DNA of 10,487 nucleotides from IMG/VR virus record IMGVR_UViG_2645727562_000004; one strand, written 5' to 3'. The notes under the pieces are model-generated. The model had not been told where the DNA came from, ran no database searches, and saw only the letters and a list, made by a program, of their open reading frames with translations. How positions within the stretch are numbered: position 1 is the stretch's first letter; each line of letters starts with the position of its first letter. Of the stretch, positions 1 through 10,487 are shown piece after piece. The position numbers were made by a program, and so were the translations under genes. Source of the stretch: a virus (taxonomy: Duplodnaviria > Heunggongvirae > Uroviricota > Caudoviricetes).

Positions 1-500
1 ATACGATCTGCCGTCAGTCCCGCCTGATTGCCGGAAAGGACCAGCGTTTTGTTGAAATCGGACAGGGTTGAGTTGCCCTGATACCAGGCATACGCCAGCG
101 CACCGGTCGCCACCGCCAGCGAGGTGGCCCCCACCATCGGCAGGGTGATCGCACCGGCAAGCCCCCTGAACATGGGGATCATCCCGCCGAAGGAGTCCTT
201 AACCTGACCACCCTGTTGCAGCAGGATCAGCCACGGACTTTGCCCGCCTGCAAGCTGCGTGGCCACGTCGGTGAACTGTGCAGGCAGCATACGCATGGCG
301 GCTTTATACTGCCCGACGGAAATCCCCGCTTTCTGTGCAGCCAGCGCCTGTCGGCTCAGCGACTGTTCAACGACTGCCGCTGTTTTTTTCGCATCAGTTT
401 CCGTACCGGAAAAATGACGCCTGACTCTGGCCATCTGCTCGTCAAATCTGGCCGCATCCAGACTTAAATCAACGACCAGATCGCCTACCGGTTCAGCCAT
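1..500 (-). CDS. H: Tail tape measure protein, N-terminal ~166 codons only; the gene runs off the window start
   Basis: ATG at 500-498 (minus) preceded by GGAGGAG (plus-strand ctcctcc at 507-513). Translation begins MAEPVGD, and the frame read back from position 1 gives ...SDFNKTLVLSGNQAGLTADR, both matching lambda gpH as I recall it. Sits directly after G/T as in lambda. The frame is open to position 1. Confidence 0.9.
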   Translation of the reverse strand, partial: MAEPVGDLVVDLSLDAARFDEQMARVRRHFSGTETDAKKTAAVVEQSLSRQALAAQKAGISVGQYKAAMRMLPAQFTDVATQLAGGQSPWLILLQQGGQVKDSFGGMIPMFRGLAGAITLPMVGATSLAVATGALAYAWYQGNSTLSDFNKTLVLSGNQAGLTADR

Positions 501-933
501 ACCGGACTCCTCCTGCGATCCCTTCTGATACTGTCATCAGCATTACGTCATCCTCCGTCATGTCCGCCACATCCGGGGAAGCGGGGATAACTTCATTCCC
601 GTCCGGGCCAAAGCGGACGCCTCCGGCAAGCCCTGCCGCTTTCTGCATCAGCACATCATCTTCAGGCTCTTCGTCAGCCTCACGCCGGTTCAGCAGACTG
701 AAATCCAGCGGATGCATATCCGGATCGCTGAAAAACAGGCTGAGCACGGTGTACGTCAGCCCGGAAAAGTGCATATCCAGCAGAACATCATGAAAATAAT
801 GGGTACTGTAAAAGCGGTGCCAGTCGGCATACTCCGTGGATGACATCCCGGCAAGCATGGCACGCCAGTCGGGTCGCCCCATCTCACGCGCCAGTTTCAG
901 GGCAAAACTCAGCTCACCGTCGAACACTTTCCC
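493..933 (-). CDS. T: T segment of the G-T tail assembly chaperone fusion, reached by -1 ribosomal frameshift from G; not independently initiated
   Basis: 144-codon open frame (track ORF 493..927, MFDGELSFALKLAREMGRPDW...) in the -1 frame relative to the end of G, entered at the slippery heptamer at 927-933; stop TGA at 493-495. Sequence and length match lambda gpT as I recall it. Confidence 0.85.
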   Translation of the reverse strand, partial: GKVFDGELSFALKLAREMGRPDWRAMLAGMSSTEYADWHRFYSTHYFHDVLLDMHFSGLTYTVLSLFFSDPDMHPLDFSLLNRREADEEPEDDVLMQKAAGLAGGVRFGPDGNEVIPASPDVADMTEDDVMLMTVSEGIAGGVRYG

Positions 934-1332
934 GCAGAAACAGGCTCTGCAGGCCCGGCGTCATCTGCCTGTTCAGGGGCATCATTCACAACAAACTCAG
1001 ACATACCGGACAGACGCAACACCACATTTTCAGCATGAGAAATTGCCTCTGTGGGCCAGGTGGTAAGCACTTCCTGCTCAATCTGTTTAACGGCTTCATT
1101 CATGGAAGGCAGCTTTGTCTTCTGCGGATGGCTATGCCACAGGGACATCGCCACCACAAAAGCACCGGTTCTGACGACATCTTCCACGCTAAACTGCCGA
1201 TTGCAGACTGGACCCCGCCTGTTCTGCCTGCCGTTTCAGCAGGGCGAGATGCTCAATACGCTGCAGGGCTGAAAGTTCAGAAAGCGTGACGCTCACACCG
1301 TTATATTCAAATGATTCGGTTTTCAGGAACAT
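909..1332 (-). pseudogene. G: Tail assembly chaperone G, reading frame interrupted by a net +1 nt indel; N-terminal 47-codon ORF 1189..1332 and C-terminal 92-codon remainder 909..1187 are in different frames
   Basis: ATG at 1332-1330 with upstream GGAG gives MFLKTESFEYNGVSVTLSELSALQRIEHLALLKRQAEQA, then GSSLQSAV and stop TAG at 1189-1191. The C-terminal portion (track ORF 909..1187, EDVVRTGAF...AGPAEPVSAGKCSTVS) is in another frame ending at TGA 909-911. Start to stop spans 424 nt, not divisible by 3. Both halves match lambda gpG (140 aa) as I recall it. Could be a true frameshift or a sequencing error at the CCCC run at 1213-1216. Confidence 0.7.
927..933 (-). promoter_or_regulatory. Programmed -1 frameshift slippery heptamer G GGA AAG (G to G-T recoding site)
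   Basis: Plus strand ctttccc at 927-933 is GGGAAAG on the minus strand, positioned as X XXY YYZ in the G zero frame (codons GCG GGA AAG), 6 codons before the G stop TGA at 909-911. The T frame is open immediately downstream in the -1 frame. Confidence 0.85.
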
Positions 1333-1347
1333 CGCTGACTCTCCGGA

Positions 1348-2088
1348 TTAACTGTCGGTGACAGTGATTTCTGCAACCACAGCAAGTTCACCATTACCGG
1401 ATACAACCGGAATGTTGACCTTGCCTGCAGCAACACCTTTCACGGTGATGGTCATACCACTGACCGACACGGTGGCTTTTGTTTTATCCGCAGACACCGC
1501 ACGGAAGCTCTTGTCGGTTGCGCCTTCCGGCTGGAATGCCACGGTCAGCGTGGTGCTCTGCCCTTTCACCACCGAAGTGCTGGCAGGCGTCACGGTCATG
1601 CCGGTTGCCGCTGTGACCGTGCTGCGATCTTCTGCCATCGACGGACGTCCCACATTGGTGACCTTCACCGTGCGGGTGATCACTTCCTTCGCCGTCACCG
1701 CCTTACCGATACTGCTGACCCAGCCACGGAACACATCGACCGTGCCGTTCGGGAAGCGGATTTTATAGGCACGGGTATCACCTTCATTAAACCACGCCAG
1801 CAGCGCCTGCTGCCCCTGCTCTCCGGGCATCCACGCCAGCGTGAAGCTGGTATCTCCGGCAGATTTCTGCCCCTGCCCGGTCGCAGTCCAGTCCGCATCT
1901 TCATCATCGAGATAGCTGTCGTCATAGGACTCAGCGGTCAGTTCGCCGGGCGTCAGGTCTTTAACTTTAGCCAGACGCGACCAGTCAACGTCTGAAAGCG
2001 GATTCGCATAAGGGTCACCGCTCCCCTTATAAACCCACAGGGTGGTCCCGGCACCTTTCACCGGCATTACAGGATTTGGTACAGGCAT
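1348..2088 (-). CDS. V: Major tail tube protein (246 aa) with a C-terminal Ig-like domain
   Basis: ATG at 2088-2086 with upstream GAGGA; translation [36 protein letters not shown]... ends ...AEITVTDS with TAA at 1348-1350. Matches lambda gpV in length and sequence as I recall it. The track ORF (256 aa, from 2118) carries a spurious 10-codon N-terminal extension that overlaps U. Confidence 0.93.
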
Positions 2089-2095
2089 AGCGTCC

Positions 2096-2491
2096 TCACA
2101 TTTCATAGGTAATGACATAAGTCAGATCGGCTGAACTCCACAGGCCCGCATCATCGTCGCGCCGGTAGTCATAGCCACTGGCCACCATACTGGTGATCAA
2201 ATCTGACAGTGCCGGGACATCGCTCATCACCGGATAAATCCGGGACTCCATCCACGAATCCAGCTCTGAATCCGGCACCTGAGCAGGCAGGAAAACTTCA
2301 ATATGCAGCTCCGCCTGCCAGGTATCACTGTCCAGCTCTTCGCCCGTGTATTCAGCGCCGGTGAGATAAACGGCAATTGCCGGAAAATCCGCCTCATCAA
2401 AAACAGCGGGGCGACCATCAAAAAGCGTCGCCCCGGTGTCATGCTTCTCCAGTGCATCCAGTACGGCTGCACGGAGTTCAGTATGTTTCAT
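2096..2491 (-). CDS. U: Tail terminator / tail completion protein (131 aa)
   Basis: ATG at 2491-2489 overlapping the Z stop as ATGA; translation [38 protein letters not shown]... matches lambda gpU as I recall it; stop TGA at 2096-2098. Confidence 0.93.
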
Positions 2492-3066
2492 CGCTTTATT
2501 ACCATTCTCAGTTGATGCTGCAGCGCATAGCCCAGCTCTTTCGGAAGACGCTCACGCCGTATCCGCTCAATATTCTGTTTAAACGCCGTGGTAAGCGGCA
2601 CCGCCATCGGGATTTTCACCACATCAATGGGGTAACGGTTTTTCCCGGCCACACGCTGCATAACATGCCACCGGCCATTTTTCAGTTGCTGAATAAACGC
2701 GCCGGAAATACGACGGTTTCCCACCACAAGCACGCTACCGCCACCTTTCAGGGATGAACGCTGCCCCTTTTTACGACGCCTGCGGCGGGAAAGGACAACC
2801 CGCGCATTACCCAGCCTGATTACGGGCAAATCCCCCCGGTTAACCCTGATTCTGGCCTGCGGATTTTTGACCGTGGCCCTTTTCAGCCTGGCCCTTTCCT
2901 TTACCAGTTTCCGACGTACCTTTGTCTCACGGGCAACCTGTGACGCAGACTGCGATATCGCGGATGAAGCAACGCGGTTAATGGCCATTGCGGCGGCACC
3001 AGGCACCGCCGTTTTGCTGATACGGCTGAGGTTTTCAACGGCCTGCTCAAGACCTTTTATGGCCAT
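2488..3066 (-). CDS. Z: Tail completion protein (192 aa), basic/arginine-rich
   Basis: ATG at 3066-3064; translation MAIKGLEQAVENLSRISKTAVPGAAAMAINRVASSAISQ... matches lambda gpZ as I recall it; stop TGA at 2488-2490 overlapping the U start. Confidence 0.93.
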   Translation of the reverse strand: MAIKGLEQAVENLSRISKTAVPGAAAMAINRVASSAISQSASQVARETKVRRKLVKERARLKRATVKNPQARIRVNRGDLPVIRLGNARVVLSRRRRRKKGQRSSLKGGGSVLVVGNRRISGAFIQQLKNGRWHVMQRVAGKNRYPIDVVKIPMAVPLTTAFKQNIERIRRERLPKELGYALQHQLRMVIKR

Positions 3067-3077
3067 ACATCCCCCTT

Positions 3078-3431
3078 TCAGCGGCGACGGTTAACGGCAG
3101 GCGGCACCCCACGCCCAAGCCAGAGATGACAGCTTCCGCCATCATCCGGCGAAACCCGATCCACCCAGAAGTTTTCCTCACCGATGGTCAGCGTGTCGCC
3201 ACGCCGCAGCTGCCGCACATCATCAGTCCGGACAAACAGGGACGGGCTGGAGCCTTCAACGCGCACCCCCTGTCCGGCATAGCTGATATTTTCAGGGTCA
3301 TCAAAAACACCACGTATCACAGCACCGGACAGCTCACCGGATGTCATGGTGGCTGACGTTCCCATGTACCCGCGTATCGTTTCATCGGCGCAGGCAATGG
3401 CAGCATCGAACAGGTTATCGAAATCAGCCAC
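3078..3431 (-). CDS. FII: Head-tail joining / head completion protein (117 aa)
   Basis: GTG start at 3431-3429 preceded by GGGAGG; translation (M)ADFDNLFDAAIACADETIRGYMGTSATMTSGE... matches lambda gpFII as I recall it; stop TGA at 3078-3080. Confidence 0.92.
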   Translation of the reverse strand: MADFDNLFDAAIACADETIRGYMGTSATMTSGELSGAVIRGVFDDPENISYAGQGVRVEGSSPSLFVRTDDVRQLRRGDTLTIGEENFWVDRVSPDDGGSCHLWLGRGVPPAVNRRR

Positions 3432-3442
3432 AGCGCCTCCCG

Positions 3443-3838
3443 TTATTGCATTCTGGCCAGGCCACGCTCTGTCATTTCAGCTGCCACACCGGCAGAGACA
3501 CGAAACGCCGTTCCCGGCAGCACAAATGCCACAGCCTCATCCCGCGTGGCGTGAAGTGCATCAGTATGCAGCGTCACCAGTGCCACAACCGTGACCAGAG
3601 CAGCCGTATCAATCACGGTATCCGGCTGCGCTGATACAACCTCATTTTCATGTCCGGTCAGCGCATTTTCCGGGCTGACAGATGTGTCCTGACCGGCAGC
3701 GTCATCCGTGTCATCAAGCTCCTCTTCCAGCTCTGCCACACGGAGCACCAGTTCTTCTTTCGTCCCCGTCAGGCTGACATCACGGTTCAGTTGCTCACCC
3801 AGCACCTGAAGACGGGCAATCAGTTCATCTTTCGTCAT
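3443..3838 (-). CDS. FI: DNA packaging / head assembly accessory protein (131 aa)
   Basis: ATG at 3838-3836 preceded by GGAGGAG (plus 3843-3849 ctcctcc); translation MTKDELIARLQVLGEQLNRDVSLTGTKEEL... matches lambda gpFI as I recall it; stop TAA at 3443-3445. The track ORF start at 3877 lies inside the upstream hairpin and is rejected. Confidence 0.9.
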   Translation of the reverse strand: MTKDELIARLQVLGEQLNRDVSLTGTKEELVLRVAELEEELDDTDDAAGQDTSVSPENALTGHENEVVSAQPDTVIDTAALVTVVALVTLHTDALHATRDEAVAFVLPGTAFRVSAGVAAEMTERGLARMQ

Positions 3839-3859
3839 GGACTCCTCCACAGAGAGAAA

Positions 3860-3877
3860 ATGGCCCCGAAGGGCCAT
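3860..3877 (-). terminator. 7-bp stem with UUCG tetraloop followed by a U-rich tract, immediately after the E stop; intrinsic-terminator-like or mRNA-stabilising hairpin
   Basis: mRNA sense (minus strand): UAA UC AUGGCCC UUCG GGGCCAU UUUCUCUCU GUGGAGGAG UCC AUG(FI). Perfect 7-bp stem AUGGCCC/GGGCCAU with UUCG loop; plus strand atggccccgaagggccat at 3860-3877. Confidence 0.45.
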
Positions 3878-3879
3878 GA

Positions 3880-4905
3880 TTACGCCAGTTGTACGGACAC
3901 GAACGCATCAGGATCAGCCAGCAGCATCAGCGGTGCTGACTGAATCATGGTGAACTCACGCGCCGGATCGCCGGTGGTCACCCAGTTTTTCGGGTAGCGG
4001 GCAGAGGCGTTAATACCTTCGCGCTGTGCGTCCGCATCCTGAATGCAGCCATAGGTGCGCAGACCGCGTGCCTGAGTGTTCCCCAGCACCATCGTGTTGT
4101 CCGGCAGGAAGTTCTTTTTGACGTCGTTTTCCACGTACTGTCCGGAATACACGACGATCGCCGTATCGCCATACATCCCCTTATAGGACACCGCTTCGCC
4201 CAGGTCTTTTACCGCTGTCTCCAGCTCGGAATGAGAGCCGCGACGGGTATCCAGCTTCTCCTTGACGGCTTTGAAGGAACGGAACAGCGCCCAGCCTTTC
4301 GGATCAAACACGATGATATTCACCACGCCGCTGGCGTTCAGCGCGTAGGCTTCGATATCGTCGGTCGGGTCATACGTGGACTTGTCACGCTTGCTCCACT
4401 CCGTACCGCCGGACTGCGTGATGTTGTTCGCCACACTGCGGCCCATATCCACCTCAACCGGATCGAAGGCTTCACCGGTCATGGTGTATTTGCCCTTAAG
4501 CACGGCAGAAACGGCCTGCATCTCTTCGACCTGAGCAATGGCCAACTCTTCGTCACGCATGTTCTGCAGGATGATGCGACGGCGGCGGTAAGCCGGGTCC
4601 GCCAGATTCTGCGGATCTTCATCCGGCAGGCGACGCAGGGTCATCTGCGGATTCACTTCATGCTTGGGTTTGACATATCCCGGCGTAAATTCAGAGGTGG
4701 AGCCGCCACGGGAACGGATAACCTCACCGGAAACAATCGGCGAAACGTACAGCGCCATGTTTACCAGTCCCGGAATTTGTGAGAGATAGACTTTCTCCGT
4801 AGTGAAGGGATAGCTCTCACGGAAAAAGAGACGCAGAAACAGCGGATCAAACTTAAATTTCTGCTCATTTGCCGCCAGCAGCTGGGCGGTTGTGTACATC
4901 GACAT
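3880..4905 (-). CDS. E: Major capsid protein (341 aa)
   Basis: ATG at 4905-4903; translation MSMYTTAQLLAANEQKFKFDPLFLRLFFRESYPFTTEKVYLSQIPGLVNMALYVSPIVSGE... ends ...DAFVSVQLA with TAA at 3880-3882. Matches lambda gpE in length and sequence as I recall it. The track ORF (350 aa) has a spurious 9-codon upstream extension across the U-tract/hairpin region. Confidence 0.95.
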   Translation of the reverse strand: MSMYTTAQLLAANEQKFKFDPLFLRLFFRESYPFTTEKVYLSQIPGLVNMALYVSPIVSGEVIRSRGGSTSEFTPGYVKPKHEVNPQMTLRRLPDEDPQNLADPAYRRRRIILQNMRDEELAIAQVEEMQAVSAVLKGKYTMTGEAFDPVEVDMGRSVANNITQSGGTEWSKRDKSTYDPTDDIEAYALNASGVVNIIVFDPKGWALFRSFKAVKEKLDTRRGSHSELETAVKDLGEAVSYKGMYGDTAIVVYSGQYVENDVKKNFLPDNTMVLGNTQARGLRTYGCIQDADAQREGINASARYPKNWVTTGDPAREFTMIQSAPLMLLADPDAFVSVQLA

Positions 4906-4918
4906 AAAAAAATCCCGT

Positions 4919-4940
4919 AAAAAAAGCCGCACAGGCGGCC
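4919..4940 (-). terminator. GC stem-loop followed by U7, lying between two U7 tracts in the D-E intergenic region; intrinsic-terminator-like element just upstream of the E start
   Basis: mRNA sense (minus strand): UAA(D stop)...CACUAAAG GCCGC CUGU GCGGC UUUUUUU ACGGGA UUUUUUU AUG(E). Stem GCCGC/GCGGC (plus 4926-4939), U7 at 4919-4925 and a second U7 at 4906-4912 abutting the E ATG. Confidence 0.45.
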
Positions 4941-4960
4941 TTTAGTGATGAAGGGTAAAG

Positions 4961-5293
4961 TTAAACGATGCTGATTGCCGTTCCGGCAAACGCGGTCCGT
5001 TTTTTCGTCTCATCGCTGGCAGCCTCCGGCCAGAGCACATCCTCATAACGGAACGTGCCGGACTTGTAGAACGTCAGCGTGGTGCTGGTCTGGTCAGCAG
5101 CAACCGCAAGAATGCCAACGGCAGCACCGTCGGTGGTGCCATCCCACGCAACCAGCTTACGGGTGGCGGTGTCCAGCATCAGAGGGGTCATTGCAGGCGC
5201 TTTCGCACTCAATCCGCCGGGCGCGGTTGCGGTATGAGCCGGGTCACTATTGCCCAGCGGCTGGTAATGGGTAAAGGTTTCTTTGCTCGTCAT
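4961..5293 (-). CDS. D: Head decoration / capsid stabilisation protein (110 aa)
   Basis: ATG at 5293-5291 with upstream AAGGGA; translation [42 protein letters not shown]... matches lambda gpD as I recall it; stop TAA at 4961-4963. The track ORF starts two codons earlier (MFM...). Confidence 0.93.
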
Positions 5294-5302
5294 AAACATC
5301 CC

Positions 5303-5908
5303 TTACACTGGTGTGTTCAGCAAATCGTTAACGGCATCAGATGCCGGGTTACCTGCAGCCAGCGGTGCCGGGGCACCCTGCATCAGACGATCCAGCGCAG
5401 TGTCACTGCGCGCCTGTGCACTCTGTGGTGCTGCGGCCAGAATACGGCGGGCCGTTTCCACGGTCATACCGGGGGTTTCTGCCAGCACGCGTGCCTGTTC
5501 TTCGCGTCCGTGAGCCTCCTCACAGTTGAGGATCCCCATAATGCGGCTGTTTTCTGCCGCAACCGCTGCGGTGATCTGCGCGTTCACGTCCGGCTGCGCC
5601 GCGCTGGCGTTCTCGCCCTCCGTCGCTGGCACCACGTCAGTAACGTCAGCCTGCGAAGCAGTGGCTGAAACAGTTGTTGATTGAGTCTCTTTGGTCATTC
5701 GCCCTCCTGAGAGACGGGATTTACGTGCATCCAGTGCATCACGCATGACGGTGATCGCATCGGTGCTGTTAACAAGTTCATCAGCCAGTCCGGCATCAAT
5801 GGCCTCCTGACCGCTGTACACTGCAGCCTCGGTATCCAGCACAGCCTGCACGGACAGGCCGGTATATGCCGACACCTTCTGCGCAAACATCTGGCGGGTT
5901 GCGTCCAT
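5303..5908 (-). CDS. nu3: Capsid scaffolding protein (201 aa), nested in-frame within the 3' third of C
   Basis: Internal in-frame ATG at 5908-5906 (C codon 239, MDATRQMFAQKVSAYTGLSV...) sharing the C stop at 5303-5305; start position and 201-codon length match lambda Nu3 as I recall it. The acidic, Ala/Gln-rich C-terminal region is typical of scaffolding proteins. Confidence 0.8.
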   Translation of the reverse strand: MDATRQMFAQKVSAYTGLSVQAVLDTEAAVYSGQEAIDAGLADELVNSTDAITVMRDALDARKSRLSGGRMTKETQSTTVSATASQADVTDVVPATEGENASAAQPDVNAQITAAVAAENSRIMGILNCEEAHGREEQARVLAETPGMTVETARRILAAAPQSAQARSDTALDRLMQGAPAPLAAGNPASDAVNDLLNTPV

Positions 5909-6602
5909 CCGGGACTGCAGTGTCTCCCGGACGTCATCCGGAAGATGGCTGTAGGGGTTGCCATCCACCTTATGGCTGCCGCTGTAAATCAGCGTGATTT
6001 CCACACCCTGTTTCTCCAGCGCAGCACCGTAATTACTGTGAGCCATCATGACGCCGATGGAGCCTGTCCGGGCGGTCTGCGTGACCAGACGCCGGGAGGC
6101 GGCACTGGCAAGCAACTGACCTGCACTGCAGTTCATGTCGTTGGCAAGCGCCCATACCGGTTTTATGTCACGCACACGGGCGATGATGTCAGCGCAGTCA
6201 AATGCCCCCGCCACCATCCCGCCGGGCGTGTCCATATCCAGCAGAATGCCGTCCACCATCGGATCGCTGGCAGCCTGTTGCAGACGGGCGATAATGCCGT
6301 TGTAACCGGTCATCCCCGAGTACGGCTGCAGCGCCCGCGTCCGGCTGACCAGCGTGCCGGACACCGGCAGCACGGCGATGCCGTTCATGACCTGATAACT
6401 GCGGGCCTGTCGTGGTCCGTCATCATCACCGGATAATGCCAGCGTCGCGAGTGCCTCCTGGGCAGTCAGGCTGTCGCCGGACACCGCATCCGTCAGGCGG
6501 CTGATCCCAAGCTGGCCTGCAAGCGCACAAAAGAAAACCCGCGCATAGGCGGGTTCAAGCATCAGCGGCTCATTAAAGGCCATGCTGGCAATATGCGGGA
6601 GA

Positions 6603-6622
<20 letters not shown>
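5303..6622 (-). CDS. C: Prohead (capsid maturation) protease / minor capsid protein C (439 aa)
   Basis: GTG start at 6622-6620 preceded by a strong SD GGAGGAG (plus 6627-6633); translation (M)TAELRNLPHIASMAFNEPLMLEPAYARVFFCALAGQ... matches lambda gpC as I recall it; stop TAA at 5303-5305. Start overlaps the 3' end of B by 20 nt. The track's 484-aa ORF is an in-frame upstream extension into B and is rejected. Confidence 0.9.
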
Positions 6623-10303
<3,681 letters not shown>

Positions 10304-10329
<26 letters not shown>

Positions 10330-10487
10330 TCAGCAACCCCGGTATCAGTTCATCCAGCGCGGCTGCTTTGTTCATGGCTTTGATGATATCCCGTTTCAGG
10401 AAATCAACATGTCGGTTTTCCAGTTCCGGAAAACGCCGCTGCACCGACAGGGGGATCCCGTCGAGAATACTGGCAATTTCACCTGCG
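10304..10487 (-). CDS. nu1: Terminase small subunit, C-terminal ~61 codons only; the gene starts beyond the window end
   Basis: Frame ending ...KAMNKAAALDELIPGLLSEYIEQSG with TAA at 10304-10306 matches the lambda Nu1 C-terminus as I recall it; overlaps the A start by 26 nt. The frame is open to the window end. Confidence 0.85.

Follow-up and report, generated by a model that had tools for sequence, protein, structure and literature searches.

A split tail assembly chaperone gene G in a lambda-type prophage contig is best explained as a consensus artefact of two prophage copies

The tail assembly chaperone gene G of the prophage contig described here is split into two reading frames by one extra nucleotide, and we consider it about 90% probable that this reflects a consensus drawn from two collapsed prophage copies and not prophage decay, a homopolymer error or recoding. 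The window referred to throughout is the whole stretch of DNA that was analysed, which is the entire 10,487-bp contig JHRZ01000102.1 of draft assembly GCA_001265735.1. Its sequence is a blend of two parents; the choice between the parental bases follows an alphabetical rule; and its disrupted G is reproduced exactly from two intact genes.

Results

G is split within an intact tail module

The window encodes a lambda-type head and tail module on the minus strand over its full length (1..10487), comprising Nu1', A, W, B, C, D, E, FI, FII, Z, U, V, G, T and H'. A preliminary description made from the sequence alone had called every gene besides G intact, and all 14 of these were indeed found to be full length. 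The major tail gene V lies at 1348-2088 (minus strand) and the order V-G-T-H' is that of annotated relatives. Lambda gpG and gpGT are tail assembly chaperones that involve a programmed -1 frameshift (PMC5009743). As expected for such a pair, two overlapping ORFs, G and T, lie between V and the tape-measure gene H; G matches PF06894, in two pieces, and T matches PF06223 (E = 2e-14); and the slippery heptamer G GGA AAG (933-927, minus strand) is intact and the same as in relatives, with T open from 927. The T ORF itself (493..927, minus strand) is 144 codons long and is shifted by -1 with respect to the 3' part of G, and its product is identical to the T protein (WP_000459457.1) of a prophage in E. 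coli STEC17-190.

G runs on the minus strand from an ATG at 1332-1330 to a TGA at 909-911, coordinates that agree with those reported in the preliminary description, and this span of 424 nt leaves a remainder of one when divided by three. The 5' piece (1189..1332) reads from the ATG for 47 codons to a TAG at 1189-1191 and yields the 47-amino-acid product MFLKTESFEYNGVSVTLSELSALQRIEHLALLKRQAEQAGSSLQSAV, which matches PF06894 positions 1-41 (E = 3.2e-18). The remainder of G (909..1203) lies in the +1 frame, where homology resumes at Asn44 (AAT, 1203-1201) and the sequence reads NRQFSVEDVV...GKCSTVS, matching PF06894 positions 50-125 (E = 7.8e-30); the corresponding entry in the ORF list has 92 codons from a GTG at 1187 to the TGA at 911-909. 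The TAG after 47 codons was correctly described before; the point at which homology to gpG ends was not, as this was placed at ...KRQAEQA and in fact extends through Leu43. The frames and Pfam matches bear out the further statement that the 92 C-terminal codons, the slippery site and T all sit in the +1 frame, and if the sequence were real the G-T fusion would be lost, as was also proposed. An antisense ORF of 149 codons over G (840-1289, plus strand) has no Pfam match and is probably spurious.

Removal of base 1204 restores a single G of 140 amino acids that matches PF06894 positions 1-125 of 126 (E = 8.6e-55) and has 85-94% identity over its full length with 140-amino-acid G proteins, the best cluster representative being at 94%. 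The deposited sequence thus lacks the uninterrupted G ORF of about 140 codons that would run into the slip site, and we judge this absence to be an artefact of the record.

The extra base lies in a hypervariable linker

The preliminary description had suggested that alignment to an intact G would reveal a 1-nt gap near 1201-1216, and alignment against the nearest G alleles does show a single gap, at 1204, where the unmatched base is a G on the gene strand (C on the plus strand) in the context TCT[G]CAA. It had also named a CCCC run (1213..1216, plus strand) within that interval, and had offered a recent lesion or a homopolymer sequencing error as the cause. That run, at alignment column 148, carries no indel and differs from the AGSSL-type allele by a substitution only (GGA to GGG on the gene strand). 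When the whole window was aligned with the three closest E. coli prophages, namely those of STEC17-190 (L004, 99.1% identity) and ECO2947 (L006) together with L005, 93-126 substitutions were found and the extra base in G was the sole indel.

The base falls within a hypervariable patch of the G linker (1173..1218, minus strand; codons 39-53) in which the two parental alleles introduced below differ at about 20 of 45 positions. The indel zone proper is at 1204..1211 (minus strand): G1204 is missing in the AGSSL-type allele and one C of 1210-1211 is missing in the lambda-type allele. Both of these unpaired bases are present in the window, giving the net +1. Linker variants among database G proteins include ESDSNRKFT, GSSLNRQVS and ESSGNLQVS, among others. 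Across the family, G residues 40-53 form a hypervariable linker, of which 120 cluster representatives (P0031-P0150) show at least 18 variants, and Asn44 was invariant in an alignment of 11 sequences.

The window is a site-by-site blend of two prophage haplotypes

The STEC17-190 and ECO2947 prophages, picked as the top BLAST hits to the window, were then treated as candidate parents. They differ from each other at 219 aligned sites, and at all 219 the window has the base of one or the other (126 and 93 respectively). Where the two agree, the window has no private substitution and the extra base is its only departure, a count that is favoured by choosing the parents as top hits; natural sequences under the same test had 94-144 private sites. 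Even so, parents chosen in this way would be expected to leave about 20 shared differences, and such a choice cannot account for the alphabetical bias described below. Within G the window is likewise a site-by-site mix of an AGSSLNRQV-type allele (STEC17-190) and a lambda-type allele (ECO2947), with switches even within codons.

The pattern of switching is unlike that left by recombination. Parent choice along the window forms 99 runs (98 changes), against 108 +/- 7 expected for independent picks, and there are seven switches between adjacent bases, so that the parent is chosen independently from site to site. What the choice does follow is the base itself. Read on the deposited plus strand, the parental base that comes first in the alphabet is the one present in the window at 202 of 215 sites in a gap-free alignment of the trio (p = 9e-45), and at 205 of 219 in a four-way alignment, whereas four natural control trios had the alphabetically first base at 45-47% of sites. 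The order A<C<G<T holds in each of the six base-pair classes, with counts of 72:7 for A over G, 58:2 for C over T, 28:3 for A over C, 18:0 for A over T, 19:0 for G over T and 10:2 for C over G. We know of no mutational or recombinational process that would produce this order. The observed bias does arise if a consensus step settles conflicts or ambiguity codes by going through the bases as A-C-G-T, and certain consensus tools handle ties or IUPAC codes in this way.

Thirteen sites break the rule (window 397, 4105, 4177, 4327, 5167, 6578, 7575, 7668, 8803, 8933, 9025, 9667 and 10222), and at 12 of these the window has the STEC17-190 base, which suggests that the true second parent differs slightly from the ECO2947 prophage at these positions. 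Lambda-type modules occur in E. coli at a median of two, and up to nine, places per genome.

The ends of the contig were also compared with the two references. At the H side the contig ends (window 1) 1 nt before a difference between the STEC17-190-type and ECO2947-type sequences, after 396 identical bases, and a dense patch of reference differences starts about 60 nt further on past this end. No coincidence with a difference between the two references was found at the Nu1-side end. The contig ends point only weakly to repeat boundaries.

Merging two intact alleles gives the 424-nt gene

Both parental G genes are intact and 423 nt in length. With commonly used scoring schemes, the best alignment between them opens a single 1-nt gap in each gene, scoring 629 against 621 for the ungapped alignment, and in the linker it takes the form GGGATCCAGTCT-CAAT / GGAGT-CAGACAGCAAC. 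The consensus predicted from this gapped alignment, GGGGTCCAGTCTGCAAT, is the window sequence. With gaps in the linker of both alleles and each unpaired base kept, G becomes 424 nt instead of 423. When the alphabetical rule was applied to the whole gene, with a base beating a gap, two of ten co-optimal alignments gave the 424-nt G of the window at every position. Since merging two intact genes yields the G of the window without a mismatch, a consensus artefact is the best explanation of the frameshift. The same rule applied to the full STEC17-190 and ECO2947 sequences gave a product of 10,487 nt; beyond the G patch, 13 of its sites disagreed with the window.

The lesion is confined to one contig

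The 47-amino-acid G product is encoded by exactly one contig in the gene index, JHRZ01000102.1. The lesion with its 26-nt context (GGCGGGGTCCAGTCTGCAATCGGCAG) had no other occurrence in the genome, viral and metagenome contigs that were scanned for exact patterns, and there were no matches either when the extra base was left out or made optional or when the right flank alone was used; and the repaired 140-amino-acid G was not found among about 15 billion proteins. A search for the lesion in related isolates, or for decay of neighbouring genes, found neither: it is on one contig only and the 14 other genes are full length. A literature search on JHRZ or GCA_001265735 returned nothing.

Several other proteins of the contig are rare. 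Terminase A (8404-10329, WP_052923380.1) and portal B (6603-8204, WP_052923379.1) were each found on this contig only among about 15 billion proteins, and it is probable that both are chimeras generated by the blending and do not represent natural alleles. Common alleles are present on the contig for C, D, E, W, V and T. The FII allele (3078-3431, WP_052923378.1) is rare, yet it is present on three ENA metagenome contigs (L022-L024), and the rare proteins of this contig need not all be artefactual. Relatives traced by the rare FII and Z alleles have a lambda-type G.

Other disrupted G genes

Disruptions of G were also found in other E. coli prophages. A change of CAG to TAG at codon 46, which leaves a 45-amino-acid product followed by a 92-amino-acid ORF from a GTG, occurs on nine contigs from several independent samples (L008:3001-3138, L009:1380-1517 and seven more) with otherwise intact tail modules, and appears to represent a true lineage of amber mutants in G. 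One further G has a TAG at codon 24 (L019:2849-3040); two NCTC long-read assemblies (L014 and L018) have single-base homopolymer insertions in G; and E. coli 446 (L020) has an annotated gpG pseudogene. None of these broken genes has the insertion seen in the window. We considered whether G has a recurrent break point, given that other G fragments of 45-47 and 92 amino acids exist, but these carry different lesions and the clustering of lengths is an ascertainment effect.

Discussion

How the contig may have arisen

We propose that two lambda-like prophages, with head and tail modules about 98% identical, were present together in the source genome or sample, one resembling the prophage of E. 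coli STEC17-190, with a G allele of the form ...AGSSLNRQVSVEDLV..., and the other resembling that of E. coli ECO2947, with a lambda-type G allele of the form ...AESDSNRKFTVEDAI.... The assembly pipeline would have collapsed both copies into a single contig and settled each conflicting column by a fixed rule, under which whichever base comes first in the alphabet (A<C<G<T), as read on the strand of the contig, is taken and any base is preferred to a gap. The linker alleles of G would be so divergent that their best alignment puts a 1-nt gap in each, and the consensus, by keeping both unpaired bases, would come to 424 nt, not 423. No single DNA molecule in the cell would then have had the sequence of the contig, and each real copy probably had an intact 140-codon G and a working G-T frameshift. 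The coexistence of two copies in the sequenced sample, and the software step at which the rule was applied, are what we infer.

Alternative explanations

The preliminary description was right that G is disrupted by a net +1 and that an error is likelier than decay; its proposed cause, the CCCC run, did not stand up, and the options of a real lesion or of recoding found no support. The first of these options is a genuine 1-nt insertion in the G gene of one real prophage, a recent pseudogenising lesion that would leave the element without G or G-T and tail-defective. We consider this unlikely, and no observation calls for it. Broken G genes are known from other assemblies (the codon-46 and codon-24 TAG alleles and the E. 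coli 446 pseudogene), the extra base lies outside any homopolymer and the contig has no other indel, all of which would fit such a lesion; however, the 10.5 kb around it do not form a natural haplotype, a merge of two intact alleles predicts precisely this extra base, and the lesion is in no other sequence of any collection searched. The notion of a decaying prophage fares no better, with the lesion on one contig only and every other gene full length.

A random base-calling error in an otherwise faithful contig, such as a miscount in the CCCC homopolymer, would account for a singleton lesion in a draft assembly, but is very improbable: the gap falls in TCT[G]CAA and a substitution is the only change in the CCCC run, there is no other homopolymer indel in 10.5 kb, and an error of this kind would leave the blended, alphabetically resolved sequence unexplained.

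A frameshift that is real and is rescued in translation appears still more doubtful, to the point of being extremely unlikely. Rescue could be by +1 slippage at GTT TAG C (1194-1188) or by termination and reinitiation at the GTG at 1187, which begins one base past the TAG, in which case G would be made as two pieces. Slippage would yield a G of normal length, 140 amino acids, altered only from NRQF to QSAV within the hypervariable linker, and the stop, 13 nt past the insertion, has a C after it and a codon ending in TT before it. The +1 frameshift signal of prfB (RF2) consists of an SD-like element 3 nt upstream, a CTTT run, a TGA stop and a following C (PMC12421855). In the sequence CAATCG GCA GTT TAG C only the last of these is present: the stretch 3 nt upstream is CAATCG GCA, which is not SD-like, GTTT stands where prfB has CTTT, and the stop is TAG instead of TGA. 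Neither is there an SD ahead of GTG 1187. No homologous sequence shares the site, the arrangement is in no relative and shows no conservation, and the contig is itself artefactual. The second recoding event raised in the preliminary description is therefore not borne out, with the prfB-type signals mostly missing and the lesion in no other sequence. We would give very little weight to the possibility that one real copy has the extra base and makes low-level G by +1 slippage on GTT TAG C or by restarting translation at GTG 1187; if true, it would be a second recoding event stacked on the G-T -1 frameshift.

Finally, a natural fine-scale mosaic or an ancestral intermediate allele, considered as G linker variants do recombine in nature, is rejected on the zero private sites over 10.5 kb together with the alphabetical bias.

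Implications

The split G is best regarded as a collapsed-repeat artefact and not as a real biological feature, and there is no evidence here for a tail-defective prophage or for a new recoding signal. The public draft contig is on this view a synthetic blend of two prophages; its split G should not be cited for pseudogenisation, and WP_052923380.1 and WP_052923379.1 are probably likewise unfit to serve as natural alleles. Testing for the alphabetically first base against two close references offers a cheap, read-free way to spot blended contigs.

Comparison with known systems

The G/T module of the window is an ordinary lambda-family member. It resembles lambda gpG/gpGT, for which the programmed -1 frameshift was reportedly described by Levin, Hendrix and Casjens in 1993 and by Xu, Hendrix and Duda in 2004 and 2013, in its V-G-T-H order, its PF06894 and PF06223 matches, its G GGA AAG heptamer, its T in the -1 frame without a start of its own, and the 85-94% protein identity of its repaired G to 140-amino-acid family members. 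It differs in that G is split into 47 and 92 codons by one extra base, which we ascribe to assembly. The likeness to the CTT TGA C site of prfB is limited to an in-frame stop followed by C, a preceding codon ending in TT and the fact that a +1 shift would restore the G frame; unlike prfB, the window site has no internal SD-like element, has GTTT for CTTT and TAG for TGA, and is not conserved. With the disrupted G genes of other E. coli prophages the window shares the gene and in part the region (the codon-46 amber of L008 and L009), whereas those are point nonsense mutations on several independent contigs or indels in error-rich long-read assemblies.

The closest match is with collapsed-repeat artefacts, known from draft genomes of strains that have several near-identical prophages, in which one contig stands for two paralogous copies and each variable site has the base of one copy, with spurious indels where the copies align with gaps and, as here, a short contig ending inside conserved genes. 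The window differs from the usual artefact of this kind in being unusually clean, about 94% of its conflict sites being settled deterministically in the order A<C<G<T.
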